Origin: a virus
Reading direction: 5' to 3' (one strand)
Virus record (IMG/VR): IMGVR_UViG_3300045988_118718
Location: 1 to 40,482 of that record
DNA: 40,482 nt
The position numbers and the translations under genes are program-made. The notes under the pieces were generated by a model that saw only the letters and a program-made list of their open reading frames with translations, was not told where the DNA came from and ran no database searches. This document shows, piece after piece, positions 4,918 to 38,686 of the stretch. The first letter of the stretch is position 1. Every line of letters begins with the position of its first letter.

Positions 4918-5049
4918 TTCTGACCTCTCTTTCTGATCCAATTACGATCTTCGTTCTTGTAACGGAACCTCTTGGCTCTATTCGTATGATGTAGGCATTG
5001 AACAGCCCCTCGTACATCAGCTTTTGTCCTCGGACGATTCGTCCGTCTT

Positions 5050-5472
5050 CTACTGCTTTACCTTCCCACATTCCAGTTCCTCCAGTCTGATATAAATTCC
5101 AGGCTTTGCCGCCCAGAACTTTTCCACGATCTCACTGCACACAAGCGCATCGTCTTTCCAGTATCCCAGTGCCGTCATGCCATCTTTCAAAGCCTTTTGC
5201 AGATTGTCCGTATCTGGCCTAGTAGCTTTCCATTCACCATCGCTATGATTTCCCTTCAAAGGAAAGAGCCACTTCACCACCAATCGGCATGGCCCTATGA
5301 TCGTCTGCCAATCTTCCGGCATGGCTCTATACAAAGCTCCCGTGATCTTCGCTTTTGCCCTGTTCAGTTCCGGTGGATCGTAGAACACGGGCTTGCCTTT
5401 GATCATCGTTACCTTATGCTCCTGTGCCGTTACGGTTGGAGGGATCATCGGCATAAAAAATTCAGTTTTCAT
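5050..5472 (-). CDS. rusA: RusA-family Holliday junction resolvase
   Basis: 140 aa. The …RPDTDNLQKALKDGMT…WKDDALV… motif matches the RusA catalytic Asp pattern. Confidence 0.85.
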   Translation of the reverse strand: MKTEFFMPMIPPTVTAQEHKVTMIKGKPVFYDPPELNRAKAKITGALYRAMPEDWQTIIGPCRLVVKWLFPLKGNHSDGEWKATRPDTDNLQKALKDGMTALGYWKDDALVCSEIVEKFWAAKPGIYIRLEELECGKVKQ

Positions 5473-5834: not shown

Positions 5835-8033
5835 CTAATCGCGTATAATAAATCCATTTTCTATCTTGTAACCGGCATTTTTTATCCAGTTTCTGACTGT
5901 ACTTTCTGGCTTATCAAGGTGTTTTACAAGGTCCTTAAACATGGTTGGATCACCATAGTTTTCAAGATCGATGAAGTTATCGATTTCTACTTTATGATTG
6001 TTTCTCTTCTTCTTGGCCACCTCTTTAGCTTTGTTGATTGCTTTCTTTTGCGGTGTCATATAATCCGGTTGGACATCCTTCAGAACGCCTGTGCGGTCCC
6101 AATGATGAACCGGATAGTCAAACCATAGATTGACTGGATCAAAGCGTTTGAACTCACGCAGCGTGCCTTCTATGCGCCATGCTGTTCGTCCCTTGGCCGT
6201 TTCTCTGACGGTCTTCAATTCCTCTGTGATTTGTTTGTATTGCGGTTTCAAGAGGTCCCTGCACCATTCCAGCATTCGTGTCTGGCTGAACTGATCATCA
6301 ATCGGTATTTGCTCCTGCAGATTGTATTTGCGCAGCCACTGCATACAGAATTTACATACCGCTTTGTTTTCTTCCTGGTCTCGAACTGTGTCCGAAACTT
6401 CCAACTCAATAAGGTCTAACAGCGCATCGGGATCTCGTGCAAACACTCCTGAGCCACTGGCTCTATCCATCGAGCGTTTACCGCCCTGCGCGCCCTTTGA
6501 ATGATGGTGACAGTAGATCACCGCACACCCCAATTCGGTGCACACCTTGTCAAACTGGTTACAAAAATTTGCCATCTGATCAGCACTATTTTCATCACCG
6601 GTAATGACCTTGTAGATTGGGTCGATGATGATAGCGATATAATTCTTTTTAGCGGCACGTCTTATCAGTTTCGGTGCCAGCTGATCCATAGGTACCGACT
6701 TCCCACGTAAGTTCCAGATATCAATGTTGTCAATGTGCTTCGGCTCCAAGTGCATGGCTTTATACACGTCCTCAAATCGATGCAGACATGACGCTCTATC
6801 AAGCTCCAGGTTCACATACATTACACGTCCCTGCTTACAGTCCCATTCCAGCCATTTAGCGCCTTCAGCCATTGCAATGACTAACTCAATGAGTGCAAAG
6901 GATTTACCAGCCTTTGACGGACCAGAAATCAGCATTTTGTGGCCGCAGCGCAACACTCCTTTGATTAGTTCCGGTGACAAACTTGGCATATCGTTCCAGA
7001 CTTCGGCCAGGTTTTCCGGATCTGGCAGATCGTCATTGACCGATTCAATCCATTCTTCCCATTCATTCCAGGATGACTTTCCGATATTCGTATCAATTAA
7101 AAACTGTTTGTTTTTTCCTCGCTTGATACCCGGCATACGTGACAGTCTGCTTGGATTCTTGTTCTGCTCGTCGATGATTAATCCATTCTTCTTACAAATC
7201 TTGTATAAGTAATCAACGCGCTTTCTATATTCCTTATTATCGGCTGCATCCACTTTGACGATGGCATGGATGGATTTCCCACCGCTGTAAACCAAACAGG
7301 CTACCGGCAACTCTAGTTCCCGAATCAGTGCATTCTGCTTGGCCAGATCCATATCGTCACACTCGACCAATGCATACCGAAATTCGGTAACATTAGAGTT
7401 CTTACATCCCTGACCGTCCAGTGGATTAAAACGGATCCATGCACCGGCTTCCGGGTCATAGTCTCCCATCACAGCACCAATATCGCCTTTGCATTGCCTT
7501 AAATCGGCAATAAGTTGTCCGGCCGTCTTTTTATAAGATCCCTGTGTGGGCACATGCTTACCATCTTCGTTGACCCAACTTTTAGTGACATAGCCTACGA
7601 TATCCTCATCGTTGAATAATGTTTCAAGATATTTAATAAGATCGCTCACAGGCTTCCATCTGCGCCCGTCAGGCTGTTCAATGGGCAATACTTCCACATG
7701 CTCCGAATCAACCACTACATAGTCATCCGATATCTCATCATCCCAACCTAATGCGACTGCTTCTTCCCGTACCGGTGGTTGGTATCCTCGTTCATAGGCC
7801 ATTTGATAGATGGTGCCACCTGTGACGATACTGCCGCCGTCTTCTCGAAACGTCTCCCATTTCGAGCCACATTCACCGGGATGGTAGCGAGCGGAGTCTC
7901 TACGGCTCCACTCTTCCCAATCCCAAGCGCTGTATCCTTCATGCTTTAACGCCATACCTACATTGACCCATTCTTGGTAATTTAATGTTTCCGGATCAAT
8001 GTAGTACAGCAGCTGCTTAATGTTACTTTCCAT
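5835..8033 (-). CDS. DNA primase / replicative helicase fusion (PriCT-like N-terminus, primase-polymerase-like core, RepA/AAA_25-like ATPase)
   Basis: 732-aa ORF. The N-terminal YQEWVNVGMALKHEGYSAWDWEEWSRRDSARY…KWETF resembles a PriCT_2 motif. Walker A is GPSKAGKSF and Walker B is IIIDPIYK. Confidence 0.8.
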   Translation of the reverse strand: MESNIKQLLYYIDPETLNYQEWVNVGMALKHEGYSAWDWEEWSRRDSARYHPGECGSKWETFREDGGSIVTGGTIYQMAYERGYQPPVREEAVALGWDDEISDDYVVVDSEHVEVLPIEQPDGRRWKPVSDLIKYLETLFNDEDIVGYVTKSWVNEDGKHVPTQGSYKKTAGQLIADLRQCKGDIGAVMGDYDPEAGAWIRFNPLDGQGCKNSNVTEFRYALVECDDMDLAKQNALIRELELPVACLVYSGGKSIHAIVKVDAADNKEYRKRVDYLYKICKKNGLIIDEQNKNPSRLSRMPGIKRGKNKQFLIDTNIGKSSWNEWEEWIESVNDDLPDPENLAEVWNDMPSLSPELIKGVLRCGHKMLISGPSKAGKSFALIELVIAMAEGAKWLEWDCKQGRVMYVNLELDRASCLHRFEDVYKAMHLEPKHIDNIDIWNLRGKSVPMDQLAPKLIRRAAKKNYIAIIIDPIYKVITGDENSADQMANFCNQFDKVCTELGCAVIYCHHHSKGAQGGKRSMDRASGSGVFARDPDALLDLIELEVSDTVRDQEENKAVCKFCMQWLRKYNLQEQIPIDDQFSQTRMLEWCRDLLKPQYKQITEELKTVRETAKGRTAWRIEGTLREFKRFDPVNLWFDYPVHHWDRTGVLKDVQPDYMTPQKKAINKAKEVAKKKRNNHKVEIDNFIDLENYGDPTMFKDLVKHLDKPESTVRNWIKNAGYKIENGFIIRD

Positions 8034-14994: not shown

Positions 14995-15003
14995 TGATAA
15001 AAT
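14995..15003 (+). promoter_or_regulatory. candidate extended -10 (TGATAAAAT) for the plus-strand accessory gene
   Basis: Located 27 nt upstream of the ATG at 15030, with AAAGGAG between them. Confidence 0.3.
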
Positions 15004-15029
15004 ATATTTAGTGAAAGGAGATAAATTAC

Positions 15030-15242
15030 ATGTCAAATTTTGATGATGACTTTATTAATGATTTTCTAGAGTCATACAATTCATTTCTGAATGACACTAT
15101 CAAGAAAGCAACATTTCAAATAGATAAAATTATCGAGTTGCAAATTTCTTCCTATATTGGCTCAATACAAAGATTATCTGAAACAATAATTAGAAATAAT
15201 AATGCTATTTTAAAACGCTTAACCTTCAATTTGTTGATATGA
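15030..15242 (+). pseudogene. 5' fragment of an accessory (moron) gene split by the IS insertion
   Basis: The reading frame enters the IS at 15216. Removing the IS and one TSD copy joins it in frame to 16357..16872. Confidence 0.8.
15208..15215. repeat. target site duplication TTTTAAAA (left copy)
   Basis: An identical 8-mer abuts both ends of the IS. Confidence 0.75.
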
Positions 15243-16348
15243 CATAAATAATGTTGGATTAAACAGTATTTTATAAGTACAGAGAAACGAGGTACTTATA
15301 TGTTGATGAATACTAGTTCTGATTTTTTAGTCCCTTCCATTGATGAAAAACTTTGCGCTTATCAAAAAGATCGTATTTCTCAAATGATCCGTGATTATCT
15401 GGAAATCAATCAACAGATGGATCACTTTCATTTCGAATACTGTCCTAAATGTGGTCAACATCATCCCATGCTCGTAAAAGCGGGTAAAACCAAGGCTGGT
15501 AAACAGATGTTGAAATGTAATTCCTGTAAAAAACGCTTTGTATGTGATCATGGTCAGTTGACTTACTATTCTCATCAACCGCAGTCAAAATGGAACGATC
15601 TGATCATCGAAACGCAGAATGGAAATTCGCTGCTTCATACAGCTGCTAAAATCGATGTACATGAATCCACTGCTTTTCGTATGCGTCACAAATATCTTCA
15701 TTTCATTGAAGATATGGAGTGTCCCATATGTGCTACATCATGAAATCGAAATGGATGAAACGTATGTGACACATTGCCGTAAAGGCCGTTTTATCAAAGA
15801 TCATCCCGGCAAGAAGCGGGGTACCCGTGCTTCCAGGGCCGGTTTGTCCGATGAGAAAGTGTGCATAATAACAGCAGTGCAACGCCTGGGAAAATGTATT
15901 GCACGTTCGCTGAATGTATCGAAACCTTCTATAAAAAATGTAGAAGACTTTTGTCAATCCGTTGCCAATAAAAGCTACGTCTGGACAGATGGACTGCAAA
16001 GTTATACAAAGGTCCTCTGTGAAAAGAAATGCACCAACAAAGTTTTGAATACCTACAGTAAATACGATGCAGTCAATCATCTGAACAATGTCAATTCATT
16101 CCATTCAATGATCAAGGAGCAGTATCGGTTTTACCGGGGAGTGTCCAGCAAATACATCAACCGATATAATGCTCTGTTTACATTACAGAAGGAATATCAG
16201 GGAATGGACTCACAAGAATTCCTGTTACTGATTATGAAAAGATTGAGAGGACAAGTTAGTTACTTTTTTATTCGTCAAATACGAAAAGTAGATCTTTTTA
16301 AATTTGCGATTACTTAAAAGGCTATGTCAACAAATTGGAGATTAAGCG
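15216..16348 (+). mobile_element. IS1595-family (ISXO2-like) insertion sequence, 1133 bp
   Basis: 22-bp terminal inverted repeats match at 20 of 22 positions: cgcttaaccttcaatttgttga at 15216..15237 versus the reverse complement of 16327..16348. It is flanked by an 8-bp TSD. It encodes a zinc-ribbon plus DDE (ISXO2-like) transposase. Confidence 0.85.
15300..16317 (+). pseudogene. IS1595-family transposase, interrupted by one frameshift near 15715..15735
   Basis: ORF 15300..15743 carries the zinc ribbon CPKCG…CNSCKKRF and the HTH-like TAFRMRHKY. The +1 frame from about 15730 continues with EIEMDETYV…, the first DDE Asp region. A single indel explains the split. Confidence 0.8.
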
Positions 16349-16872
16349 TTTTAAAAAGTATTGAATCAATTCAGAAAGTAAACACTGATGCAATATCTTT
16401 AGCAGCCAAACAATCTATCCAAAACAATTTAGAAACAGTAATTAAAGCGAATGTAATCAATAGCAAAGTTTTTTTGGATTCATATGTTGATAACATGATT
16501 GCTTACGCTGCCAATAATGTTGTTGATCAATTGGAAAATATCAAAAGCGATGAAGTTGAAGAAAGTACAACAGCCCAAAATCTTCAACCAGTAAAGAAAC
16601 ATACACATTGGACAAGAGGTGATGTTCTTTCGCTGATATCCATAATTCTTTCTTTAATCATGTTTGTGCTTCCTAACAATAATGATCAAAACATTACGAT
16701 AGAAAACATCGAAGTAAATATCATAAATTCAGAAGATAACGTTGGTAATCCACCAAACAAACTAATTGAAAGTGTTTCTTCATTGATTCAGATAATAGAT
16801 GATATTGATCCAGAACTACTTCATCAATCTATTGATGAAGTTAAAGAGGACTATCAAGAAAACAGCAATTGA
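16324..16872 (+). pseudogene. 3' fragment of the split accessory gene; could still be expressed from an ATG inside the IS right end
   Basis: ATG 16324 lies inside the right inverted repeat and is in frame with the host-gene remainder. The protein has one TM helix (VLSLISIILSLIMFVL) and an acidic C-terminus. Confidence 0.7.
16349..16356. repeat. target site duplication TTTTAAAA (right copy)
   Basis: Identical to 15208..15215. Confidence 0.75.
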
Positions 16873-16893
16873 TAAAAGATTTATACTTCTTTT

Positions 16894-16930
16894 AAGACTT
16901 TGAACTCGCACTTCAAGGTCTTTTATTTTT
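16894..16930 (+). terminator. rho-independent terminator
   Basis: 11-bp stem AAGACTTTGAA/TTCAAGGTCTT with one G-U pair, followed by TTATTTTTT. Confidence 0.7.
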
Positions 16931-17009
16931 TCTTTATCATCCATCTCACACCTCTTTCTATGTCTGTTCCTTCCCGTTGTATAATGACTTTTGTTTCACC
17001 TTTTAGCTT

Positions 17010-17207
17010 TTAAAAATCTTCAAATAGATAATCAATAGTAAATTCTGGAAAAACTTTACGTTTTATCAGCAGCATTGCTTTCAAGTTAATATTCGTTGTT
17101 CCTGACAAGTAATTAAGTAATGTCTTATACTCAATTCCCACTTCCTCAGAAAGTTCCTTCTTTGACATTCCTTTTCTAGAAAGCTCTGCCTCTAAATTTC
17201 TAAACAC
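17010..17207 (-). CDS. Cro-like XRE-family HTH regulator
   Basis: 65 aa with a GTG start 7 nt after AGGAGG. The HTH is MSKKELSEEVGIEYKTLLNYLSG. It is divergent from the repressor gene. Confidence 0.8.
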   Translation of the reverse strand: MFRNLEAELSRKGMSKKELSEEVGIEYKTLLNYLSGTTNINLKAMLLIKRKVFPEFTIDYLFEDF

Positions 17208-17223
17208 TTCAGCACCTCCTTTG

Positions 17224-17313
17224 TTACCCCGCGAGGTAATTACATGTACATAATATACGCTGTAGGGTAATATGTCAATGCGAAAGAATAATTATTTTTA
17301 CTTTGCGGGGTAT
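17224..17313. promoter_or_regulatory. three 16-bp operator-like sites in the switch region
   Basis: TTACCCCGCGAGGTAA (17224..17239), the reverse complement of 17255..17270 (TTACCCTACAGCGTAT) and the reverse complement of 17298..17313 (ATACCCCGCAAAGTAA). Confidence 0.6.
17250..17278 (-). promoter_or_regulatory. early lytic promoter candidate (TTGACA-17-TATTAT)
   Basis: Minus-strand TTGACA at 17278..17273 and TATTAT at 17255..17250. An operator-like site lies in the spacer. Confidence 0.6.
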
Positions 17314-17321
17314 TTTCTTTC

Positions 17322-17349
17322 TTTACAACGTAATAAAATAGGTTATAAT
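17322..17349 (+). promoter_or_regulatory. repressor promoter candidate (TTTACA-16-TATAAT)
   Basis: TTTACA at 17322..17327 and TATAAT at 17344..17349, upstream of the SD AAAGGTGA and ATG 17371. Confidence 0.55.
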
Positions 17350-17370
17350 CTAGGTATAAAGGTGATTGCT

Positions 17371-17775
17371 ATGTTAAAAGACAAACTACTAGAACTAATG
17401 GAAGAAAAAGGTATAAATAAATCGGAGCTATCAAAAGGAGCGGATATTCCTTATACGACTATAGATGGGCTATTTAAAAAGAACTCTGAAAATATAAAAC
17501 TGCCAACTTTGAAAAAGTTAGCAGCGTACTTTAATTGTTCGATGGACTATTTGGCTGATGATGAATCTTATAAAAAGTCCCAATGGGGCAATGATGCAGC
17601 CAACCGGGAATATTTAGCAGATAAGCCAGAATTACTAGAAATATATGATCAGCTGGTAAATAGAGATGATATGGTTATTCTTTTTGACAAAACCAAAGAT
17701 CTCGAACCTAAAGATGTGGAGTCCGTACTGATGTTTGTACAAACAATTCGTAAGCAACGTGGTTTAGATGATTAG
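17371..17775 (+). CDS. cI/ImmR-like XRE-family repressor
   Basis: The HTH is INKSELSKGADIPYTTIDGLF. I chose the internal ATG 17371, which has an SD, over the track start 17272, which lies in the promoter region. There is no S24 peptidase domain, consistent with ImmA-dependent control. Confidence 0.8.
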   Translation: MLKDKLLELMEEKGINKSELSKGADIPYTTIDGLFKKNSENIKLPTLKKLAAYFNCSMDYLADDESYKKSQWGNDAANREYLADKPELLEIYDQLVNRDDMVILFDKTKDLEPKDVESVLMFVQTIRKQRGLDD

Positions 17776-18109
17776 TGACACGAATGATGTCATTATACGC
17801 ACTATGATATCATCGGGTGATTTTATGAGTTTTGAAGACTTCTGTGCACAGAATAATATAGTGGTTACTTATTATTCTTTCTCAACCAAGGTGCGGGGTT
17901 GCTGTATGAAGATAGATGATTACTATCTTGTGGCAATCAACCCTAGATTTTCAAATAATTCAATGAAGCGAACTCTCATTCATGAGATCACGCATATTAT
18001 GCAGGATCATCTGCTATGCGATCAGAGCGAATATGAGAAATGTGAAGAAGAAATAGACAGAATTATTAGTAACATGAAAAAATTAAAGTTTAACCAATTA
18101 ACATTATAA
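17768..18109 (+). CDS. ImmA/IrrE-family metallopeptidase (anti-repressor protease)
   Basis: HEITHIMQDH is a HEXXH motif. The gene overlaps the repressor stop, the typical ImmR-ImmA pairing. Confidence 0.8.
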   Translation: MISDTNDVIIRTMISSGDFMSFEDFCAQNNIVVTYYSFSTKVRGCCMKIDDYYLVAINPRFSNNSMKRTLIHEITHIMQDHLLCDQSEYEKCEEEIDRIISNMKKLKFNQLTL

Positions 18110-18120
18110 GGAGGAAGTAC

Positions 18121-18963
18121 ATGCCAAAAAGTATTTTTGATTTAGAAGTTAGATTAGACTTTGATAAAGAGTATAAAAGAATCATGGAAATTATTGATAG
18201 CCCTATATTTTCCACTTCATATCAAAGCGGTTTTTCTTTCTATGAAATAATAAACAGTATTTTTCAATTTTGGCCATATCGTCGCACTGCTAGAACTATA
18301 GATGAATATTTTGAACTTAAAAATTTAAGATTTGGTAATTTTTCATCATCTAAAGAGGAAAAACTATACGATCTTCAGTTTGTATTTGATTTTATTTGCT
18401 GGATATATAACCCAAATCGTAAAATGTCAGAAATGTATGGTTCAATAAGAATTGAATCAATCATAAAAGACTGTTTTGAAAGCAATAGACATTATTTTGT
18501 ATTGATTACAGATAACATTGAAGAAATAATAGAAAGCTTAAATATGGAAATCCAAACAATAAACGACCATATTACTTTTATTAAACGTAATGCTGACGTT
18601 GATAGCGTTCTAACACAATTAGAAGAAGAACCCGATATTCGTTTATTACTTCTTTCTTATAATGATTTCAGAGTAGAAAATAGTTTGGAAGATAAGCAAT
18701 ATATTATCAGAAAACTAGCTGATTGGCTTGAACCTCAAAGGAAGAAATATAGCTCTATTAACTCTAACCTGACAAAAGATATATTTAATGCCATAAACAA
18801 TGGAAATGTCCGACACAACAATATCAAACAATGGAGTTTCAAAACTGATGAAGATCAGTTAAAAATGTACGATAAGATATTCAAAATGATTCTTCATCTT
18901 ATACGAGAAGAAGATGTAAAAAAAATACGTGAGGAAATCAAGATATTAAATGCAAACCATTAA
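18121..18963 (+). CDS. hypothetical 280-aa protein; candidate prophage-encoded defence or exclusion gene
   Basis: Visibly AT-rich ORF with a GGAGGAAG SD, placed between immA and int. I recognised no motif. Confidence 0.7.
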   Translation: MPKSIFDLEVRLDFDKEYKRIMEIIDSPIFSTSYQSGFSFYEIINSIFQFWPYRRTARTIDEYFELKNLRFGNFSSSKEEKLYDLQFVFDFICWIYNPNRKMSEMYGSIRIESIIKDCFESNRHYFVLITDNIEEIIESLNMEIQTINDHITFIKRNADVDSVLTQLEEEPDIRLLLLSYNDFRVENSLEDKQYIIRKLADWLEPQRKKYSSINSNLTKDIFNAINNGNVRHNNIKQWSFKTDEDQLKMYDKIFKMILHLIREEDVKKIREEIKILNANH

Positions 18964-19013
18964 CATATTGTTCTGTCCATGCTATTGTGTTAATGAATAA
19001 CGATTAAATATAT

Positions 19014-19046
19014 AAAAAATCCACCGATGCTACCAACATCAGTGGA
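19014..19046 (-). terminator. hairpin with a T-run on the minus strand
   Basis: Stem TCCACCGATG/CATCAGTGGA with one mismatch. On the minus strand it is followed by TTTTTT. Confidence 0.4.
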
Positions 19047-19160
19047 TCGATAAGGGTACTACCAATACCCAGTACATAAAAAGAATGCTCGGCAAGCATA
19101 TTCCTTTTTATGTACCTATCTTAACAAAATTACACCAAAAAAGAAAGGATGGGTACGATT

Positions 19161-20294
19161 ATGTCGGTATTCAAAGATGGAAATTCATGGGCTTATAAAG
19201 GAAAGATCGCTATTCCTTTTGAACCTGGAAAATATAAAAGTTATTACAAAAGAGGATTTTCTAAAAAGAAAGATGCGCAAAGAGCAGAACAATTATTTAG
19301 AGATAATTTTTCTACACATCAGAAAGATATTACTTTCGACGAATTAGTAAATCTATATCGTGCCAACTATCGGACACAGAATGTGAAAGAATCAACTTTA
19401 ATTGGTGATGAAAGCTATTATAGATTGCATATTCAGCCAGTTTTAGGCAAATATCCATTAAGTCAAGTTACTACACAAGCTATTGATTTATGGAAATCCT
19501 ATATGATCAAAAAGCCTAAAACAGAAAGAAAAAAGAATAAAAATGAATATTATTCTACCGCTACAATAAATCATGCTAAAAGTGTGATTAGTAAATACTT
19601 ATCATATGCAGTAAGGCTCGGTTTCATATCTTATAACCCGTGTCATAATGTACCAAGTTATCAAAACAAGGAAGAACTTAAAGAAAAACAAGAAATAAAA
19701 TTCTGGGAAGTCAACGAGTTTAAAACATTTATAGCATCTGTAGATGAAAAACGCTGGAACGATATTTTTACATTTTTATTCTTTACAGGATTACGTGAAT
19801 CAGAAATGTTTGCTTTGTCATGGAGAGACGTCGATTTTCAAAAATGTACTTTGAGAATCAATAAGTCTATTACCTATAAGACAAAAGCGGCTCCCTGGAA
19901 AATAACGACACCTAAGAATGAAAACTCCATTAGGATTATTGATTTGCAGGATACTTTATTAGATCGATTAAAAAATCGTTTAGAAAAAGAAAAACATAAA
20001 GACGGATTCACGCTTGATTATTTTATATTTGGAGATATTAAACCCGTGTCTCGATCTGACTTGGCGCGTAAAATGGATTATTTCATACAGTTATCAGGGG
20101 TTTCACGAATCACACCCCACGGTCTTCGCCATAGTCACGCTTCCTTTTTGATCAAAAGCAAAATTGACGATTCTTTAATTGCTGAAAGATTAGGACATAC
20201 CGTAGCAGAGCTAAGAAAAACTTATGCACATATATATGATTCTATGAGACAAGACATGAAAAGAATATTGGATGAAACATGTAAAATTGAATAA
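19161..20294 (+). CDS. int: tyrosine integrase
   Basis: The C-terminal catalytic motifs are …GLRESE…, HGLRHSHASFLI and LGHTVAELRKTYAHIY. ATG 19161 is preferred because ATG 19149 lies inside the SD AAGGATGG. Confidence 0.9.
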   Translation: MSVFKDGNSWAYKGKIAIPFEPGKYKSYYKRGFSKKKDAQRAEQLFRDNFSTHQKDITFDELVNLYRANYRTQNVKESTLIGDESYYRLHIQPVLGKYPLSQVTTQAIDLWKSYMIKKPKTERKKNKNEYYSTATINHAKSVISKYLSYAVRLGFISYNPCHNVPSYQNKEELKEKQEIKFWEVNEFKTFIASVDEKRWNDIFTFLFFTGLRESEMFALSWRDVDFQKCTLRINKSITYKTKAAPWKITTPKNENSIRIIDLQDTLLDRLKNRLEKEKHKDGFTLDYFIFGDIKPVSRSDLARKMDYFIQLSGVSRITPHGLRHSHASFLIKSKIDDSLIAERLGHTVAELRKTYAHIYDSMRQDMKRILDETCKIE

Positions 20295-20297
20295 AAT

Positions 20298-20324
20298 TCG
20301 CAAATTTTCGCAATTTTTTCGCAA
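20298..20324 (+). repeat. three tandem TCGCAAWTTTT repeats; candidate arm-type integrase binding sites
   Basis: TCGCAA occurs at 20298, 20308 and 20319. Further copies (TCGTAA 20499, TCGCAA 20510) lie on the other side of the putative core. Confidence 0.5.
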
Positions 20325-20340
20325 TTTTTGACAATAAATT

Positions 20341-20366
20341 AAAAAAACTCCTTTATGTAAAGGAGT
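20341..20366 (-). terminator. hairpin ACTCCTTT-ATGT-AAAGGAGT with a T7 run on the minus strand; possibly bidirectional and also ending int
   Basis: 8-bp perfect stem with an A7 run on the plus-strand 5' side. Confidence 0.5.
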
Positions 20367-20376
20367 TATCAGCTAT

Positions 20377-20402
20377 TGGTGGAGATGAGGAGAGTCAAAA
20401 GG
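20377..20402 (-). other. candidate attP core resembling the 3' end of a tRNA gene
   Basis: The reverse complement CCTTTTGACTCTCCTCATCTCCACCA looks like a T-arm (TTNGACTCTCC), an acceptor 3' strand and ACCA. There is no full cloverleaf. Confidence 0.4.
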
Positions 20403-20513
20403 ATAAAAATATTAGTATAAATAGATATTATTTATGCTTTATATAAAGGTATATGAAGTGCTTTAGAGTTTATAAGAATCATTAAAATATAAATCTTTTC
20501 GTAAATATTTCGC

Positions 20514-21244: not shown

Positions 21245-22235
21245 CAGATGCCAAAATGTTTATCAACCGCTGTGCCTCGTTGTAGTCAACTCCTAAGCGT
21301 TGTGCTTCGGCTTGCCGAGTTGCTCCTGTTCCGTGCTTGCCCTCGTTCCATACTTCAAGAGCAAATTGACGTGCAGACATAGTAGATCCGGTAGATCCAG
21401 CACCAAGTAAAGCGTTGACTCTAGCCTGTACCGCATTGTAGTTGTAACCTGCAGATGTTAATCGATTGATACGGTCCTGTCCGTTTCCCCATGATCCGGC
21501 GATTACTTCCTTGGCGATCTGATCAATGGATTTTTGTGGAGTTGTACTTGTTCCGACTCCTAACTGTCGATTAACCTCGGCTTGTACCTCAGCATAGTTA
21601 TATCCGGCAGCTTCCAGCTTAGCTTGACGTTCAGCACCATTACCATATTTGCCGGCAATGACATCTCTTGCAACGTCAGCTATAGATTTTGATGGTTGAC
21701 TAGGTTGAGTTGTGCCTCCACTTGGTGCTTGCCCACCATTGACCATCTGGTCATACCATTGCTGCGCTCTCTGGATATATGCATCTTTTTGCGAGCCATA
21801 GATCTGTCCAGGGCAGGCAGTAGCGGCAAAATATTTATGCGGAAATACATTGACCAGCCACTGCGGACGGCCTAATCCAAAATGTTTACAAAGCGCAGCA
21901 ACAAGATGTGCTCCGGCATCTAGGCAAGCCTCTGTGATTGTACCATCTGGTTGATTGGCGTGCTCAATACCAATGGATGTGCAGTTTGCTTCCCAGTTGC
22001 TAGCATGCCATGCTGTATCGCTATCCCATACAAGCTGTCCAGTACGCCCACTCGACTCTACTTGATATTGTGCTGACGCTTCACGTGTTTGCCAAACATT
22101 GTAACATTGTTCGACCGTCAGATCACCTGCGTTATAATGCACAACGAGCATCTTTACTTTTTTACCTGCTCTACCAGGTGTAAAGTGTTTATCTAAAATA
22201 TAGTTAACATCGGCATCTAAAGTTTCATAGTTCAT
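21231..22235 (-). CDS. endolysin: N-acetylmuramoyl-L-alanine amidase (Amidase_2/PGRP) with three CW_7 cell-wall-binding repeats
   Basis: The N-terminal MLVVHYNAG…IGIEHAN motif and three repeats of the type G(K/S)(Y/W)GNG..R...L..AGY.Y..VQ..VN..LG. Confidence 0.9.
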   Translation of the reverse strand: MNYETLDADVNYILDKHFTPGRAGKKVKMLVVHYNAGDLTVEQCYNVWQTREASAQYQVESSGRTGQLVWDSDTAWHASNWEANCTSIGIEHANQPDGTITEACLDAGAHLVAALCKHFGLGRPQWLVNVFPHKYFAATACPGQIYGSQKDAYIQRAQQWYDQMVNGGQAPSGGTTQPSQPSKSIADVARDVIAGKYGNGAERQAKLEAAGYNYAEVQAEVNRQLGVGTSTTPQKSIDQIAKEVIAGSWGNGQDRINRLTSAGYNYNAVQARVNALLGAGSTGSTMSARQFALEVWNEGKHGTGATRQAEAQRLGVDYNEAQRLINILASGGSI

Positions 22236-22339
22236 TATTCTTCCTCCTTATCTTCTTTTGGCGCATCAGCACCTTTTCCCATTGCGTTCAATTCCTCTTC
22301 CATTTCCGGTGTAATTACTACGTCTAAACTTTCTGGCAT
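22235..22339 (-). CDS. small acidic ORF (34 aa), below the ORF-track cutoff
   Basis: GGAGGAAAACAAA precedes the ATG. The stop overlaps the endolysin start (TAATG). Confidence 0.35.
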   Translation of the reverse strand: MPESLDVVITPEMEEELNAMGKGADAPKEDKEEE

Positions 22340-22351
22340 TTTGTTTTCCTC

Positions 22352-22678
22352 CTATTCTCGAATCGGCAGCTCTTTTAACTCAAGCGCCATCTTCTTCACT
22401 TTTCCATTCCCACCAAGATCCTCATAAGCTTCGGCCATTTCAATTAGATTTTCGTATCCGTGTGGTGTTATTTCCCCACGCTCGATATAGCGGTCATGAT
22501 AATCGATGATTTGTTGCCTCAAAAGACATCGAGTTCCTTTTCGATTGGCTTGTTTTTCAATCTCTTCTCGTTCATCACGCACTTTGGCTTGTTTCCGTAT
22601 ATTTTTTAGCAGCCATACAATGTAACCGCACATGGCGGTTACTATGGATACCACAACCTGGGTAAATAAATCTTCCAT
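22352..22678 (-). CDS. membrane protein of the lysis cassette (holin/antiholin-like, one N-terminal TM)
   Basis: TM helix VVVSIVTAMCGYIVWLL followed by a charged tail. Lies between the holin and the endolysin. Confidence 0.55.
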   Translation of the reverse strand: MEDLFTQVVVSIVTAMCGYIVWLLKNIRKQAKVRDEREEIEKQANRKGTRCLLRQQIIDYHDRYIERGEITPHGYENLIEMAEAYEDLGGNGKVKKMALELKELPIRE

Positions 22679-22679
22679 T

Positions 22680-23018
22680 TTATTCCTCTACAGATGCATT
22701 AAAGCCACCGTTAAATCCATTAACAGCGGCTTCAATTAAAGTTTCTAATTCGGTTGTCGTTACAGTTATTCCTGCATTCGTGAGTAATTCCGATGCTCTG
22801 TCTAAAGCTTTCTGCAGCTTCTCTTCTCCGTGGATATCTTTATAGACCTGTTCGACATATTCTACAGTACTGTTCACAATGTCATACTTGGTTTGATTAT
22901 CCACATACTTATTATATGCTTTTTTGATCTGATATCCTACGACACCAGCCACACACATTAGTACAGTTCCTGCCAGTTGTAAGACCGCCGGCATGATTGT
23001 TTCAATGATTTGTTCCAT
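22680..23018 (-). CDS. holin (LL-H-like)
   Basis: 112 aa with N-terminal TM AVLQLAGTVLMCVAGVVGY and a soluble helical C-terminus. SD is AAAGGAGG. Confidence 0.6.
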   Translation of the reverse strand: MEQIIETIMPAVLQLAGTVLMCVAGVVGYQIKKAYNKYVDNQTKYDIVNSTVEYVEQVYKDIHGEEKLQKALDRASELLTNAGITVTTTELETLIEAAVNGFNGGFNASVEE

Positions 23019-23028
23019 AGATCCTCCT

Positions 23029-23376
23029 TTATTCTATAGTTGCTGTAATTGATGCTAAAAAAGTAACTTCACTTCCATATTTTGGAAAATTAAATATCAG
23101 TTCTTTTCCTCTAATAATCATACTTCCACCAGTAACCACCAAACTAGTTCCTACAAAACCTGTAATTACCGCAATACTTCTTGGATGATAGTATGGTAGT
23201 AATTCACTGAATTCATAGCGATTTCCACCAGAAGAACTTACTGTAATTTCTAGCATATAAGTTACAACATTACCATTTCTTGAATAATCGACTTTCCCTT
23301 TATCTGTTCCAACAGTAAAGTGAAATGTTCCTGTTTCACTTTTCAATTGATTACCATGTCTGTCTATTAGTTGCAT
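23029..23376 (-). CDS. tip cassette 5: paralogous small beta-rich protein (115 aa)
   Basis: N-terminus MQLIDRHGN. No SD. The start codon sits in the loop of a 9-bp hairpin ATTAGTTGC/GCAACTAAT. Confidence 0.65.
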   Translation of the reverse strand: MQLIDRHGNQLKSETGTFHFTVGTDKGKVDYSRNGNVVTYMLEITVSSSGGNRYEFSELLPYYHPRSIAVITGFVGTSLVVTGGSMIIRGKELIFNFPKYGSEVTFLASITATIE

Positions 23377-23397
23377 AAAATCGCAACTAATCTGCTA

Positions 23398-23772
23398 TCA
23401 ACTTCTTTTCGCTACATACATATAATTGATATAGAATACATTCATATATCCACTAAATCCGCTTCCAATATCAACAACTAGATTGTTACCATATACATTG
23501 GCTTTAACGTCACCACTTCCATTACCGGGATATCCGATTGGATAATAATAATTTGGTTGTCCTGTTTTTGCACACCACAAGCAAGAACATGGATGAATGA
23601 AGAAATAATCAAACCCACCTGCACCTATGTTAACTTCCTTGTGCAAACTAGTACCCATATCAATTTGTATATGCTTCATTAAGATAGGTCTACCATCAAC
23701 CCATCTCATGCCTGTATCTTGTTCATTTTGCGAAAAATTCATAACTGCATTTCCAAAACGATCAGTGAACAT
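23398..23772 (-). CDS. tip cassette 4: receptor-binding-head-like protein (124 aa)
   Basis: MFTDRFGN…NEQDTGMRWVDGRPI…, clearly paralogous to cassette 2 along its full length. No SD. Confidence 0.7.
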   Translation of the reverse strand: MFTDRFGNAVMNFSQNEQDTGMRWVDGRPILMKHIQIDMGTSLHKEVNIGAGGFDYFFIHPCSCLWCAKTGQPNYYYPIGYPGNGSGDVKANVYGNNLVVDIGSGFSGYMNVFYINYMYVAKRS

Positions 23773-23791
23773 AAATTCACTAGATAGTGTC

Positions 23792-24091
23792 TTAATGCTT
23801 GTCTAATACGATATATCTAACTTCTAATCCTTGACCTGATACAAAGCTAGTTCCATAAACATTTATTGTTAGAGTAGAACCACTTACAGTTCCTACTACG
23901 TTTACTGGTTGGAAATATGGAGTTCCTGACCTTCCCCATACATTACCTAAAAATATAGCCGTTCCTGTCGGCGCTTTAGGCAATGTTACAGTTCCTGTCA
24001 TAGTATTTCCTTCACTTTGTCTTACAACTAACGTTCCTGTAGCTATTACATCAAAGTCATATAGACTGCTTCCATATCTATCGACTAGCAT
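23792..24091 (-). CDS. tip cassette 3: paralogous small beta-rich protein (99 aa)
   Basis: N-terminus MLVDRYGS, preceded by structured leader B. Confidence 0.7.
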   Translation of the reverse strand: MLVDRYGSSLYDFDVIATGTLVVRQSEGNTMTGTVTLPKAPTGTAIFLGNVWGRSGTPYFQPVNVVGTVSGSTLTINVYGTSFVSGQGLEVRYIVLDKH

Positions 24092-24236
24092 ATTCTCACG
24101 TGGACACTATCTAGCAGTCCACCTTCTTTCAAGTTTGAAGAGTACAAGCAGATTAGTAAATGCTTGCCCCCCCCCGTTTGTTTTGAAGAGTTTTTTCATA
24201 GAGATTGCATATCTCTAATTTTGCACAATGCTTTTC
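24092..24236 (-). promoter_or_regulatory. structured leader B: hairpin, short ORF, G9 tract, hairpin HP1, SD-like box in hairpin HP2
   Basis: On the minus strand: AGAGAT/ATCTCT hairpin (24200..24216); ATG at 24199; G9 (24167..24175); HP1 CAAGCA-N10-TGCTTG (24145..24166); GAAAGAAGGTGG (24119..24130); HP2 GTGGAC-N11-GTCCAC (24100..24122); cassette ATG at 24091. Homologous to leader A. Confidence 0.6.
24167..24175 (-). repeat. homopolymer G9 (C9 on the plus strand)
   Basis: Counted directly. One of only two such tracts that I saw in the window. Confidence 0.95.
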
Positions 24237-24608
24237 TTAGTTCTTCTTGACGTAAAGATAGTAGATATAAAAGACGTTATACCAACCTGAAAAGTTACTT
24301 GCGAGAGATACCTCTAAATTATTGTTATGGATCAAAGCATTAATCTCTTTGCCATAATTCACAGGATAGAAATAATGGTCTGCTCCTACTGAATAACTTT
24401 GTGTGCTCCACAAGCAACTATAAGGGTCAATCCAAACAAAATCATAATCATTGGCTCCAATATCTACAGAACCTTGCAAATTTGTATTTGATAAATCAAT
24501 TCTTTTATAATTTCTATAGATTGGTCTTCCGTCTTGCCATTTTAAACCTGTATCTTGTTCGCCTGTTTCAAACTGTTGAAAAGCGTTTCCAAATCTATCT
24601 ACTAGCAT
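24237..24608 (-). CDS. tip cassette 2: receptor-binding-head-like protein (123 aa)
   Basis: MLVDRFGN…GEQDTGLKWQDGRPIY…. No SD in the 19-nt gap after cassette 1. Confidence 0.7.
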   Translation of the reverse strand: MLVDRFGNAFQQFETGEQDTGLKWQDGRPIYRNYKRIDLSNTNLQGSVDIGANDYDFVWIDPYSCLWSTQSYSVGADHYFYPVNYGKEINALIHNNNLEVSLASNFSGWYNVFYIYYLYVKKN

Positions 24609-24627
24609 AATTGCTAGACAAGGGATG

Positions 24628-25011
24628 TTAGTCTGTCGTTTTGGTATATCTCAAAGTAACAACAAAAGTAACTGGCATTGCGGTTGGCATTGATCCACGA
24701 ATCGCTAAGCCATTTACTTTATTAACGTATGAGGCTTTCCAATCACTTGTGGAAAGATACATATTAACACTTTGATATCCCTCTGAATCGCCTCTGTAAT
24801 AAGCGTATGAATTTGATTCGTCTACCCATATATGACCTGCATTACTTATGCCCAAACTAGATAAACTTTTATTTACACTTATTGTTTTGGAGTTTACTTC
24901 CACCGAAACAGTCTTTGTATAAATAGGTTTTTCGTTTATCCAAAATTCGCCTGTTTCTTGTTCGGTTTCAGATAGGCTTTGAAAAATGTTTCCGTAACGA
25001 TCAACTAACAT
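24628..25011 (-). CDS. tip cassette 1: receptor-binding-head-like protein (127 aa)
   Basis: MLVDRYGN…TEQETGEFWINEKPIY…, preceded by structured leader A. Confidence 0.7.
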   Translation of the reverse strand: MLVDRYGNIFQSLSETEQETGEFWINEKPIYTKTVSVEVNSKTISVNKSLSSLGISNAGHIWVDESNSYAYYRGDSEGYQSVNMYLSTSDWKASYVNKVNGLAIRGSMPTAMPVTFVVTLRYTKTTD

Positions 25012-25123
25012 CTAATCTGGTGTACCTTGCCTAGAAGTACACCACCTTTCTGATAGAGTGTGCAAAAATTAGATAATGCACACCCCCCCCCGATTCAAAA
25101 ATTGAATTTTCATAAGTTCCTCC
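25012..25123 (-). promoter_or_regulatory. structured leader A: strong SD, short ORF, G9 tract, hairpin HP1, SD-like box in hairpin HP2
   Basis: On the minus strand: AAGGAGG (25119..25125); ATG at 25113; G9 (25083..25091); HP1 GTGTGCA-N12-TGCACAC (25058..25083); AGAAAGGTGGTG (25040..25051); HP2 TGGTGTAC-N11-GTACACCA (25018..25044); cassette ATG at 25011. Confidence 0.6.
25083..25091 (-). repeat. homopolymer G9 (C9 on the plus strand)
   Basis: Counted directly. Confidence 0.95.
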
Positions 25124-25630
25124 TTACTGCCAATACACGGCTTCTTTTAAACTTTTTACAGGCTCTGCTACTCGTGTAACACTTGTGATGCTTGTACCTG
25201 TAAATCGAACTTGATATAAAGCAAATTCATCTGTAGTTGCACCTGCCGAGATATCTCCACTAGTTACGCTTGGAGCTACAGGTGTACCCGATGTGGAAGT
25301 TCCTTTTTTTACTGCCAGCGCCATACTTTCAACTTTGGTTGATGTGCTTTTGGTGTAACGACAAACAATCAAATCAATTCGATTCTGACCGCTTACTCCT
25401 GCGCTAAAAGTCACGTTTTCGGTTGTACCTTTTTTAATTCCTCCAAGCGCTCCTTTTTGGATCAAATCACCATCGGCAATACGGACGGTAGTGTTGTTTA
25501 CTACCGTAGCCGCTAACTTCTGACCTGTTCCTAGTACCACCGAATCGCTACCAAAGATACCTCTAATCAATCTACGTTCTTTTTCAGACGTTAAATGAGG
25601 TGTCCCCCTGTACCCTGTGATGATCTCCAT
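25124..25630 (-). CDS. tail fibre/baseplate-associated protein (BppU-N-like fold suspected)
   Basis: 168-aa ORF. Its N-terminal half resembles that of ORF 28008..28631 in pattern (…RIDLIVCRY… versus …RYDYVAIRY…). It is the last gene before the cassette array. Confidence 0.5.
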   Translation of the reverse strand: MEIITGYRGTPHLTSEKERRLIRGIFGSDSVVLGTGQKLAATVVNNTTVRIADGDLIQKGALGGIKKGTTENVTFSAGVSGQNRIDLIVCRYTKSTSTKVESMALAVKKGTSTSGTPVAPSVTSGDISAGATTDEFALYQVRFTGTSITSVTRVAEPVKSLKEAVYWQ

Positions 25631-26298
25631 TAGGCATCAACTTCTTTCCACGGCGCACCGACTGCACCCGGTTCCCAAACGTTGTTATCGGCAGTGGATT
25701 CCCAAGTTTTGCCATTGTGAGTCACCTTATCACCTGTCTTATACCCGTTGGTAGATCCTGGTTGTTCCCATTCTCCAATTTCGCCAGATTGTCCAGGCAA
25801 AACTTTTGCCCACAAGCTTGGTGCATCTGCAGGTGTCCAATCAGCCTGCGCATCATGCGCTTGTAAACATTTGTACAATGTACCGTTATAGGTTACACGT
25901 TCGTCCTTTTCGTAATGCTTAGAGTCGCTCCAAATATCAAACAAGTTCGGTACTAGCACTGCAGTTTCATCGTCCACAGTTCGCGCTTGGATCTTCGCCA
26001 ATGTTATAGCATCGGCATAAGCCTGTGTCTGCGCTTCGGGAGTTTCAGTTGGTTTATACATATTGATTCCGTAGATTTGACCTGTATAAACTTCTAAACT
26101 GTACAACTCCGTGTATCCTTCAACGACTGTTTCTGACTCATTATCATCAACAAATGTCATTTTGCGTGTCTTTAAAGGATCTTTAAAATGTTCTTTGAAT
26201 GTTTCGGGTGTTTCCAAAGTTCGAATATTCAAACGATTATCCTCAAATCCAAAGCATTGGATCGTCATTTCTGACAAATCGTTAAAAATTAGTTTCAT
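25630..26298 (-). CDS. tail-associated protein with two CBM5/12-type carbohydrate-binding motifs
   Basis: YEKDERVTYNGTLYKCLQAHDAQADWTPADAPSLWAKV and YKTGDKVTHNGKTWESTADNNVWEPGAVGAPWKEV fit the W/Y..GD.V.Y.G..Y.C…W.P…LW pattern. Confidence 0.65.
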   Translation of the reverse strand: MKLIFNDLSEMTIQCFGFEDNRLNIRTLETPETFKEHFKDPLKTRKMTFVDDNESETVVEGYTELYSLEVYTGQIYGINMYKPTETPEAQTQAYADAITLAKIQARTVDDETAVLVPNLFDIWSDSKHYEKDERVTYNGTLYKCLQAHDAQADWTPADAPSLWAKVLPGQSGEIGEWEQPGSTNGYKTGDKVTHNGKTWESTADNNVWEPGAVGAPWKEVDA

Positions 26299-26306
26299 AA
26301 GTCCTC

Positions 26307-26672
26307 CTATTCTTTTACATAGTCACCATACGTATCAGTTGTACTGATCGTGCCCCATGTAGCAGTACCGCTACTACCGCCATACTTTAGTACCTGTCCA
26401 TTTGATCCACCGCTAGGAATGTGCTTATTGCCTGCGGAAGTTGGGTGCGTATATACAGTGTCGGTAAACTTAGCGTTGCTCGGTACATCATCATTGACTG
26501 TGTGCCCGTTGACCGTATCGGCATCACCACCATTGGCAGGGAGCGAACTAGGAAAATCAGTAATCTGTGATTTCGTATGGCTATGATTCTTTGCAGCAAA
26601 GTTGCTTTTGACCTTGGTATATAACTTTGATAAAGCATAAGATAGCCTTACAAGGGATAAATACTTAAACAT
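26307..26672 (-). CDS. tail fibre protein segment
   Basis: NHSHTKSQITDFPSSLPANGGDADTVNGHT is a common fibre motif. Confidence 0.6.
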   Translation of the reverse strand: MFKYLSLVRLSYALSKLYTKVKSNFAAKNHSHTKSQITDFPSSLPANGGDADTVNGHTVNDDVPSNAKFTDTVYTHPTSAGNKHIPSGGSNGQVLKYGGSSGTATWGTISTTDTYGDYVKE

Positions 26673-38593: not shown

Positions 38594-38686
38594 TTTTGTT
38601 CCTCCTACACTACGCTTTATTTACGTGAGTTGCGCTCACTTGTGCGGTCGCCTTTTAACGCCTTGCCCGTGGCAAAATAAAACACA

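Follow-up and report, generated by a model that had tools for sequence, protein, structure and literature searches.

A candidate phase-variable RNA switch, built on hypermutable poly-G tracts, ahead of putative receptor-binding cassettes in a temperate gut phage

Inversion systems such as Mu Gin, P1 Cin, and the shufflons, and mutagenesis by the diversity-generating retroelement (DGR) of Bordetella phage, are well-known host-range switches. The locus described here lies on the minus strand of a 40,482-nucleotide (nt) viral sequence (IMG/VR record IMGVR_UViG_3300045988_118718, the whole of which we refer to as the window) and resembles these systems in that one phage genome appears to encode several alternative receptor-binding ends, in the form of five small open reading frames (ORFs), the cassettes. 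These cassettes, which are promoterless, are grouped in two units, A (cassettes 1 and 2) and B (cassettes 3, 4, and 5), each headed by a leader; leader B, with its short upstream ORF (uORF) and run of nine G residues, was the subject of an earlier note made from the sequence alone. In contrast to Gin/Cin, the shufflons, and the DGR, the proposed selection is translational and would proceed without a recombinase, an invertible segment, or a reverse transcriptase.

In Campylobacter phages, G tracts reportedly lie inside the coding sequences of structural genes, which they are said to switch on and off by direct frameshifting (work attributed to Sorensen and colleagues, 2021, Cell Rep 35:109214). 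From this work, cited in two other reports (PMC12823448, PMC10877375), poly-G phase variation is known in the receptor-binding loci of these phages. The present locus likewise has slippage-prone G runs in a phage tail/receptor-binding module, but, going by what is reported of the Campylobacter phages, it differs in that the tract lies in an intercistronic uORF, the putative regulated genes are intact, and the stops fall in RNA landmarks; the probable host is also a Gram-positive gut anaerobe. The MS2-type RNA coliphages couple replicase to coat translation and control the maturation gene through delayed folding. Here, too, a start would be closed by distant pairing and opened only on nascent RNA or by ribosomes that translate an upstream ORF, but this is a DNA prophage operon in which nested helices would enclose whole cassettes and the choice would be coupled to a hypermutable tract. 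In T4 genes 38 and 25, a hairpin shortens the distance between the Shine-Dalgarno (SD) sequence and the AUG, in one case taking 22 nt down to 5 nt and in the other 27 nt down to 11 nt (PMC3014915). An intervening hairpin is predicted to make a similar cut here, from 27-31 nt to ~7-8 nt; in contrast to T4, however, its loop matches a distant junction, the same SD could serve a second AUG 300-400 nt downstream, and a phase-variable uORF reads through the hairpin. The Helicobacter pylori tlpB leader has a variable G-repeat that is targeted by the small RNA (sRNA) RepG, giving graded control (PMC8295292). Leader G-run length would similarly tune translation of downstream co-transcribed genes in this phage, but the run lies within a putatively translated uORF, and its partners are cis elements rather than an sRNA. 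Each ingredient is known separately (poly-G variation, split SD, distant start closure, and leader G-repeat); our literature search found no account in which they are combined, nor any of this phage group or of a tract carried by a uORF whose three stops lie in structured sites.

We propose, with a probability of roughly 0.55, that the locus acts as a phase-variable RNA switch, gated by a uORF, between alternative receptor-binding cassettes. The hypermutability and the RNA architecture are well supported, whereas the regulatory logic is what we infer. Homologous leaders, which the earlier note's reading called for, were found in ~28 related gut prophage and phage contigs (designated L001 and so on), among which there are 24 distinct leader backbones. 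In all 24, each of the three frames that can follow the tract has its own endpoint. Class i ends in the hairpin-1 loop with a TAA (-58 to -67 relative to the cassette ATG), class ii in the hairpin-2 loop with a TAG (-18, -21, or -22), and class iii at +4 with a TAG that lies within ATGNTAG and overlaps the start of the first cassette. This rule holds despite tract-end-to-ATG distances of 69, 70, 71, 72, 73, 74, 75, and 79 nt, which cover all residues modulo 3. In a leader-A variant whose hairpin 2 is 2 nt shorter, 1 nt has been lost on each side of the TAG, and the frames therefore stay distinct. All three frame classes occur among natural contigs.

The window's leader B follows this pattern (Table 1). 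The hairpin-2B loop holds two TAGs, in two frames, and because the cassette-3 start reads ATGCTAG, the third uORF-B frame ends at +4. The earlier note had worked out that a G8 form of uORF-B would have 37 codons and end at the TAG of ATGCTAG, and that the G9 form stops in the hairpin-2 loop TAG; both are borne out, the G9 form having 30 codons, and the window's leader B is thus outside the +4 coupling frame and uses the loop TAG. The positions and sequences that it gave for the minus-strand elements of leader B are all correct, as is its observation that CTAG stands 19 nt before the cassette ATG in both leaders. The open G8 frame that it pointed to is one instance of a conserved arrangement in which G8 is not itself conserved: in other loci, it is G7/G10 or G9 that gives the open frame, and the tract length that gives a particular frame varies between loci. 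Across loci, the part of the uORF before the tract measures 18, 24, or 27 nt, always a multiple of 3, and the spacer from hairpin 1 to the downstream SD-like tract (SD2) measures 11, 14, and 14 nt in leader A and 15, 17, 18, 21, and 24 nt in leader B. Seven of the eight indels in these two segments are multiples of 3 (nominal p below 0.01 under a one-in-three null), which is the pattern expected of translated sequence. In this phage, the uORF that holds the tract measures 14-38 codons.

The poly-G run is, on well-supported grounds, a hypermutable contingency tract. The two G9 tracts are the only runs of eight or more G residues in the 40 kb of the window; the G8 pattern has four matches (two overlapping ones in each tract) against a shuffle mean of 0.38, and no shuffle reaches four. 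The cassette ORFs themselves have no G run, the tracts being confined to the short intercistronic uORFs. The earlier note had named a fixed tract length as a finding that would tell against it; instead, the length varies from G6 to G11 across the 24 backbones. Contigs L011 and L012, which come from different samples, align over 5,604 nt with 0 mismatches and two 1-nt gaps, and these gaps are the two tracts (tract A, 9 versus 8; tract B, 9 versus 10). L057 and L062 are the same over 1,362 nt save tract A, and L001 and L003, which are 98.9% identical and have a common leader-B backbone, differ in tract B (9 versus 8). Several short-read contigs begin at or near a G tract (L060 at position 1; L056, L058, and L062 17-60 nt upstream), which may reflect within-sample length heterogeneity that breaks assemblies.

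Leaders A and B are paralogues with 73% column identity, and both are more stable than shuffled sequences (z = -2.75 and -3.59). The compensatory differences between their stems, which the earlier note had pointed out, comprise three base pairs of hairpin 1 and a single one of hairpin 2. A joint MAFFT alignment of A and B mis-registers the 3' arms of hairpin 1, because the hairpin-1 loops are 12 and 10 nt, and a covariance model was therefore built from eleven leader-B sequences alone, to which leader A was then aligned by Infernal. This model retrieves every leader A, at E values of 1e-9 to 1e-12, and has no further match in the window and none in three more distant relatives. The covariation is sustained in the larger alignment, as the earlier note's reading needed: 94.7% of cells are paired and eight pairs are altered on both sides. 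The covariation score is 0.29 versus 0.16 in shuffles (0 of 500 reach it) and versus 0.02-0.10 with slid partners. Hairpin 1 (helix 2) is 94.4% paired, with three pairs altered on both sides and the variants TGTGCA/TGCACA, TGCGCA/TGCGCA, and CAAGCA/TGCTTG; hairpin 2 (helix 3) is 99.5% paired, also with three such pairs and the variants GTGTAC/GTACAC, GTGTCC/GGACAC, and GTGGAC/GTCCAC.

Hairpin 2 is present in the minimum free energy (MFE) and centroid folds of both single leaders. SD2, whose columns in leader B are invariant in two leader alignments, lies directly 5' of it and 27-31 nt from the ATG, of which ~7-8 nt are left when the hairpin forms; counted from the last base of GGTGG, the distance is 27 nt in leader B and 30 nt in leader A, in either case more than 20 nt. 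Hairpin 2 is, judging from the sequence, a split-SD hairpin, predicted to bring the SD near the first-cassette AUG. The stem of hairpin 1B is lengthened by pairing of the G tract with CUCUUC. Hairpin 0 is seen in all leader-B sequences displayed among the relatives; the ATG in its loop opens a 4-codon mini-ORF (ATGCAATCTCTATGA) whose TGA overlaps the uORF-B ATG as ATGA, an arrangement that is not kept where the loop is 2 nt shorter (e.g., in L007). We considered an intrinsic terminator or attenuator and rejected it, as nothing in 22000..26400 resembles a terminator and hairpin 1 is not followed by a U run. Rfam 15 has no match in 22900..25300 at E values up to 1; its sole match in the window is the GP20-b RNA motif (RF03003) in the head-gene region (38611..38674, minus strand), which scores 36.6 bits versus a gathering score of 36.2.

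Beyond what the earlier note reported, there are long-range complementarities that tie the leaders to downstream cassettes. Elements of hairpins 1 and 2 of each leader are complementary to sequences at four junctions, J2 to J5. The layout is nested, the hairpin-2 partner being the junction that follows the first cassette and the hairpin-1 partner the one that follows the second. Computed with RNAduplex, the hairpin-1A:J3 duplex has -18.7 to -21.8 kcal/mol across all loci (z of -3 to -5.8 versus shuffles), hairpin-1B:J5 has -17 to -21.5 kcal/mol (z of -2.4 to -4.2), and hairpin-2B:J4 has -22 to -28 kcal/mol (z of -4.7 to -7). In every locus, cognate element-junction duplexes (-15 to -28 kcal/mol) are stronger than noncognate ones (-3 to -14 kcal/mol), with cognate z values from -1.6 to -7, mostly -2.4 or stronger. 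An automated census of the four leader-junction helices, in part recounted by hand, finds G:U at eight variant positions and A:C at one that arose by transition, together with two transversion mismatches and one deletion; this 8:1 bias points to pairing in sense RNA rather than DNA repeats. In L004, an A:U pair between J2 and the -6 region ahead of the cassette-1 ATG has become G:C through compensatory changes on both sides.

The geometry of these helices is regular. Each is flanked by an SD-like purine tract 3-7 nt on its 5' side and by an SD-less AUG 5-7 nt on its 3' side; the distances from purine tract to helix and from helix to AUG are 7 + 5 nt for SD2-A to cassette 2, 4 + 7 nt for SD2-B to cassette 4, 3 + 7 nt for poly-G A to the uORF-B AUG, and 3 + 6 nt for poly-G B to cassette 5. 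Junction-to-ATG distances of J2, J4, and J5 are conserved across loci, and that of J3 varies by 2 nt. Cassettes 2, 4, and 5 and uORF-B all lack an SD; the ATG of each either forms part of a small local hairpin or adjoins one, and this hairpin competes with the long-range helix. In L006, where cassette 2 differs, the cassette-2 start hairpin persists with new sequence (TAGTCTT/AAGACTA); the cassette-4 stem is retained in L003 despite an inserted codon; and the variants of the cassette-5 hairpin in L007 and L038 retain pairing.

A further complementarity is confined to the first cassettes of each unit, in which ~20 nt around the AUG are complementary to the cassette's own last codons and stop. 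The mean z of this start-to-end pairing is -4.7 for A1 (n = 10) and -2.8 for B1 (n = 13), and about 0 for A2, B2, and B3. In the window, the cassette-1 start (24992..25013) pairs with its own end (24624..24644) at -20.6 kcal/mol (z of -4.3), and cassette 3 has the corresponding pairing (Table 1). Unrelated first-position cassette families pair start to end through differing sequences. The C-terminal peptide TKTTD and its stop are encoded as ACGACAGACTAA after leader A and as ACTACCGATTAG after leader B, with differing synonymous codons and TAA versus TAG, and each coding matches its own start (ATGTTAGTTGATCG, ATGTTAG..., for A; ATGCTAGTCGAT, ATGCTAG..., for B). In folds of the whole units (541 nt for A and 491 nt for B), the start-to-end helix is present in both the MFE and the centroid structures, and in the 491-nt unit-B centroid the hairpin-2B:J4 helix displaces the local hairpin 2.

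In the mechanism that we envisage, the tract length, which sets the uORF frame, would decide how far leader ribosomes run. In the +4 frame, ribosomes would melt the start-to-end helix and so come to reinitiate at the first cassette by classical coupling; in the other frames, the first cassette would stay closed. With one or two cassettes looped out by the long-range helices, the next AUG, which lacks an SD, would then be released from its local hairpin and come to lie 9-12 nt from SD2 or the poly-G run. Slippage at the two G tracts would thereby switch the tail-tip cassette that a phage lineage expresses. L004 fits this reading, if only anecdotally: it has one unit-B cassette, no closing helix, G6, and frame iii.

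A number of points weigh against this proposal. First, as uORF-B lacks its own SD, its translation is uncertain, unless the remote-SD idea (see below) is right, and the effective SD-AUG spacing through a helix (9-12 nt plus the helix width) is near the upper workable limit. Second, the combinations of states that occur follow no evident rule of exactly one being on, the window, for example, combining classes i and ii and L004 having iii in both; which frame turns on which cassette is guesswork, frames i and ii and the later cassettes included, and expression may be either exclusive or graded. Third, the family is narrow, with leaders 76-89% identical, and because many of the observations share ancestry there are few independent events behind the frame rule and the G:U versus A:C bias (nominal p about 0.01-0.02). 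Fourth, the tract-length differences come from short-read assemblies, in which homopolymer consensus errors are possible. Last, the structural matches of cassette 3 (see below) are weak (E of 0.01-0.3, template modeling [TM] scores of 0.5-0.6).

A more ambitious elaboration of the switch, which we advance tentatively and think unlikely, is a two-stage, three-way selector in which two slippery tracts pick one of five heads without a recombinase or any change in the genes. Each frame's stop would lie ~10-14 nt downstream of an SD-like tether, either the poly-G run or SD2, and inside the element that pairs with the initiation region of one cassette, to which the terminating ribosome would be handed over: from +4 to the first cassette, from the hairpin-2 loop to the second, and from the hairpin-1 loop to the third. 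The target of the hairpin-1 loop would be cassette 5 or, from leader A, uORF-B onward, and the poly-G run would double as a remote SD site.

The competitor that survives best, although we doubt it as well, is a simple on/off switch, in which the tract decides coupling into the first cassette and later cassettes are translated by termination-reinitiation. The long-range complementarities would then serve otherwise, for example as an RNase III-cut stem that sets mRNA stability or stoichiometry; a discontinuous stem of ~25-35 bp that encloses a gene does resemble RNase III processing stems. An overlapping stop/start conserved in one frame, a first-cassette AUG sequestered in the whole-unit folds, and intercistronic gaps of 19-21 nt that are compatible with reinitiation all suit such a switch. 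It leaves unexplained, however, why the other two frames stop in two hairpin loops in 24 of 24 backbones, why precisely those loops match junctions, and why each helix has, at 3-7 nt, an SD-like tract on one side and an SD-less AUG on the other.

Slippage could also be transcriptional, with RNA polymerase stuttering on the G run to give a fixed mix of frames and a constant ratio of cassettes. Homopolymers of 9 nt or more can induce such slippage, and a design with three frames would function just as well in RNA. We nonetheless regard this as improbable, both for the tract-length differences observed directly in DNA between otherwise identical genomes and for the general tendency of G runs to slip less than A or T runs; transcriptional and DNA slippage are not mutually exclusive. 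Tract length can act at an earlier step, as in Neisseria porA and opc, where it tunes transcription initiation. Leader A does read TTGAAT-N19-TCTAAT at G9 and N18 at G8, in which the G run could be a phase-variable spacer between -35-like and -10-like hexamers. This is a very slim prospect: leader B lacks a -35-like hexamer at the matching place even though all else is conserved, a spacing of 18-19 nt is suboptimal, a promoter scan listed no such site, and a promoter would leave the uORF, the frame rule, the indels in multiples of three, and the complementarities unexplained.

Cassettes 1 and 3 each lie between inverted repeats of 10-17 nt, which raises the idea that a site-specific recombinase flips these cassettes, using the hairpin loops as recombination sites. 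Read on the reverse strand (24624..24644, plus strand), the 3' end of cassette 1 even gives a degenerate cassette start, ATGTTAGTCTGTCGTTTTGG, with the N-terminus MLVCRFG..., which we take to be a by-product of start-to-end pairing and not a relic gene. Inversion is nevertheless highly improbable. The cassettes in ~28 loci are all oriented like their leader; no ORF is listed on the opposite strand, where a stop is reached after 22 codons; the 28 window ORFs scanned against Pfam include no invertase, only a tyrosine integrase and an IS1595 transposase; each cassette family has arm sequences of its own, unlike a recombinase site; and the helix mismatches lean to G:U on the sense strand by 8 to 1. 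Integron-like cassettes were considered and set aside, in that the repeats enclose the gene rather than form a 3' attC and the families are position specific. Finally, that the locus has no function, with tract differences being assembly errors and the remainder conservation from a recent duplication, accords with a young and narrow family and with error-prone sequencing of homopolymers, but we give it as little weight as inversion in view of the compensatory changes in both hairpins and long-range helices, the position-specific start-to-end pairing, the in-frame indels, and a tract span of 6-11 that exceeds the ±1 expected from errors.

Table 1. Positions of leader, junction, and cassette elements and of selected other genes in the window
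Feature	Position	Strand	Sequence	Remarks
Leader A	25012..25125	-		Paralogue of leader B
Leader-A uORF	25069..25113	-		Own SD AAGGAGG
Leader-A G9 tract	25083..25091	-		
Leader-A hairpin 1	25059..25082	-		
Leader-A SD2	25042..25050	-		
Leader-A hairpin 2	25019..25043	-		Element CTAGGCAAGG at 25025..25034
Cassette 1	24628..25011	-		127 amino acids (aa); first of unit A
J2	24614..24623	-	CCTTGTCTAG	Complementary to hairpin-2A loop, 10 nt; before cassette 2
Cassette-2 start hairpin	within 24602..24623	-	CTAGCA-ATTA-TGCTAG	
Cassette 2	24237..24608	-	MLVDRFGN...	123 aa; no SD
Leader B	24092..24236	-		Short uORF with G9 run, hairpin 1, SD, hairpin 2, cassette-3 ATG
J3, 5' part of leader B	24207..24227	-	TGTGCAAAATTAGAGATATGC	Complementary to hairpin-1A loop and 3' arm, ~20 nt
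Hairpin 0	24200..24216	-	AGAGAT-ATGCA-ATCTCT	Abuts uORF-B ATG; 5' arm overlaps J3; MFE and centroid folds
uORF-B ATG	24199	-		
uORF-B, G9 form	24107..24199	-	MKKLFKTNGGGQAFTNLLVLFKLERRWTAR*	Stop is TAG in hairpin-2 loop
G9 tract B	24167..24175	-		Hypermutable homopolymer
Hairpin 1 of leader B	24145..24166	-	CAAGCA-TTTACTAATC-TGCTTG	Loop TAA closes one frame
Hairpin-1B element	24147..24157	-	ACTAATCTGCT	Complementary to J5 (23386..23396)
SD2-B	24119..24130	-	GAAAGAAGGTGG	SD-like; 27 nt 5' of cassette-3 ATG
Hairpin 2 of leader B	24100..24122	-	GTGGAC-TGCTAGATAGT-GTCCAC	Between SD2 and ATG (split SD)
Hairpin-2B element	24103..24114	-	CTAGATAGTGTC	Complementary to J4 (23780..23791)
Cassette-3 ATG	24091	-		
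Cassette 3	23792..24091	-	MLVDRYGS...	99 aa; first of unit B
Cassette-3 3'-end element	23795..23803	-	GACAAGCAT	Pairs with own start ATGCTAGTC (24083..24091); z -3.7
J4	23780..23791	-	GACACTATCTAG	Versus hairpin 2B, 12 nt perfect; 7 nt upstream of cassette-4 ATG
Cassette-4 ATG hairpin	23764..23781	-	AGTGAA-TTTATG-TTCACT	ATG in loop; 5' arm overlaps J4; read from sequence
Cassette 4	23398..23772	-	MFTDRFGN...	124 aa; no SD
J5	23386..23396	-	AGCAGATTAGT	Versus hairpin 1B, 11 nt perfect; upstream of cassette-5 ATG
Cassette-5 ATG hairpin	23367..23390	-	TTAGTTGC-GATTTTAT-GCAACTAA	Repeat search
Cassette 5	23029..23376	-	MQLIDRHGN...	115 aa; no SD; holin with strong SD next
168-aa ORF	25124..25630	-		PHROG matches span only profile positions 1-163 of 294-319
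IS1595-type transposase	15619..16317	+		
Cro/CI repressor	17272..17775	+		
Tyrosine integrase	19149..20294	+		

The five cassettes have in common only the N-terminal motif M(L/F/Q)(V/T/L)(I)DR(Y/F/H)G and otherwise belong to differing families, each restricted to first or to later positions; none has a Pfam or PHROGs match. An AlphaFold2 model of cassette 3 is all-beta, with a predicted local distance difference test (pLDDT) score of 89, and the PDB structures closest to it are distal receptor-binding domains of tailspikes (LKA1 and phi297, C-terminal domains) and of R-type pyocin fibres (the foot), together with trimeric lectins. From this model, the post-baseplate position, and the split and fused homologues described below, we infer that the cassettes may be alternative small beta-sandwich receptor-binding heads. 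In L004, unit B (7442..7876) comprises a single cassette with a cassette-4-type body and no start-to-end complementarity (z = 0.2), together with the shortest tract (G6) and the frame ending at +4, and looks like a locked-on derivative.

The 168-aa ORF upstream of leader A has no Pfam match and no significant PDB sequence match. It equals the N-terminal ~160 residues of proteins of ~255-320 aa to which PHROG assigns no function, and its homologues are either split (168-173 aa, with leader and cassettes next) or fused (255-293 aa, with their own C-terminal domain). Its post-baseplate position suggests that the 168-aa ORF is a tail-tip protein; the C-terminal domain is missing here, and separate cassettes come next. 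The idea of a fused gene, with the 168-aa ORF joined to the cassettes by readthrough, frameshift, or bypass, was rejected: the in-frame continuation past its TAA hits stops, the linker of the fused homologues is unrelated, and these proteins lack the VDRYGN motif.

The related contigs were gathered from those encoding the split form, from viral-contig scans, from one metagenome pattern scan, and from those encoding cassette-3 homologues, and share a common layout in which leader A heads two cassettes and leader B one to three, with the holin next. The metagenome pattern scan returned 30 stretches, five of them real leaders and the others chance G runs; protein-pattern and DNA-pattern scans of genome contigs gave no true match, and in a megablast search with the 4.4-kb module none of 50,697 phage records matched. 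Most leader-bearing contigs come from human gut samples, and one leader-bearing prophage, reached through a cassette-3 homologue, is in the genome of a Faecalicoccus pleomorphus isolate (GCA_028321765.1); the host is probably Faecalicoccus or a related gut member of the Erysipelotrichaceae. None of the described phages is closely related; the closest known terminases, 42-56% identical, are those of Ruminococcus, Flavonifractor, Butyrivibrio, and Faecalibacterium phages. Across phages, the leader-plus-cassette block is preceded by differing genes (a 168-aa, 224-aa, or 301-aa ORF) and therefore behaves as a portable module.

On the minus strand, the gene order is Dit, Gp37-like, and CBM5/12 proteins, the 168-aa ORF, leader A, cassettes 1 and 2, leader B, cassettes 3 to 5, holin, an amidase with CW_7 repeats, and a CHAP protein, and the locus is the tail-tip and lysis module of a siphovirus that is temperate, as shown by its integrase and Cro/CI-type repressor. 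These two genes, the transposase, and an IrrE-like peptidase lie in a low-GC region (28-36% GC) at 15000..20500 on the plus strand. Because integrase and lysis genes adjoin, the window looks like a complete, circularly permuted phage genome. In two distant relatives, L009 and L010, the homologue of the 168-aa ORF is 46% identical, and in L010 it forms part of a fused 278-aa gene. A G run also differs between these near-identical contigs (G9 at ~7689 of L009, G8 at 6920..6927 of L010), inside a 56-aa ORF of unrelated sequence context, and poly-G variation may thus be wider in this phage group. Right after the fused tail-tip gene of L010, and followed by minus-strand ORFs, is a 329-aa ORF (4405..5394) that, judged by eye, is integrase-like, which could mean recombinase-based diversification or a plain prophage integrase.

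If the proposed switch is real, single-base slippage would let a temperate phage that carries several receptor-binding options switch between them in a stochastic and reversible way. It would do so by means of a uORF and nested mRNA helices rather than by inversion, DGR mutagenesis, or in-gene frameshifting. Phage poly-G phase variation would then extend from Campylobacter phages to prophages of Gram-positive gut commensals, and the locus would be a natural case of one SD serving distant start codons through alternative RNA pairing. As there is a cultured lysogen, the F. pleomorphus isolate, the system is directly testable. The compact design could be reused as a synthetic three-state switch, and host-range prediction from metagenomes, like the annotation of prophages, would have to read such leaders.

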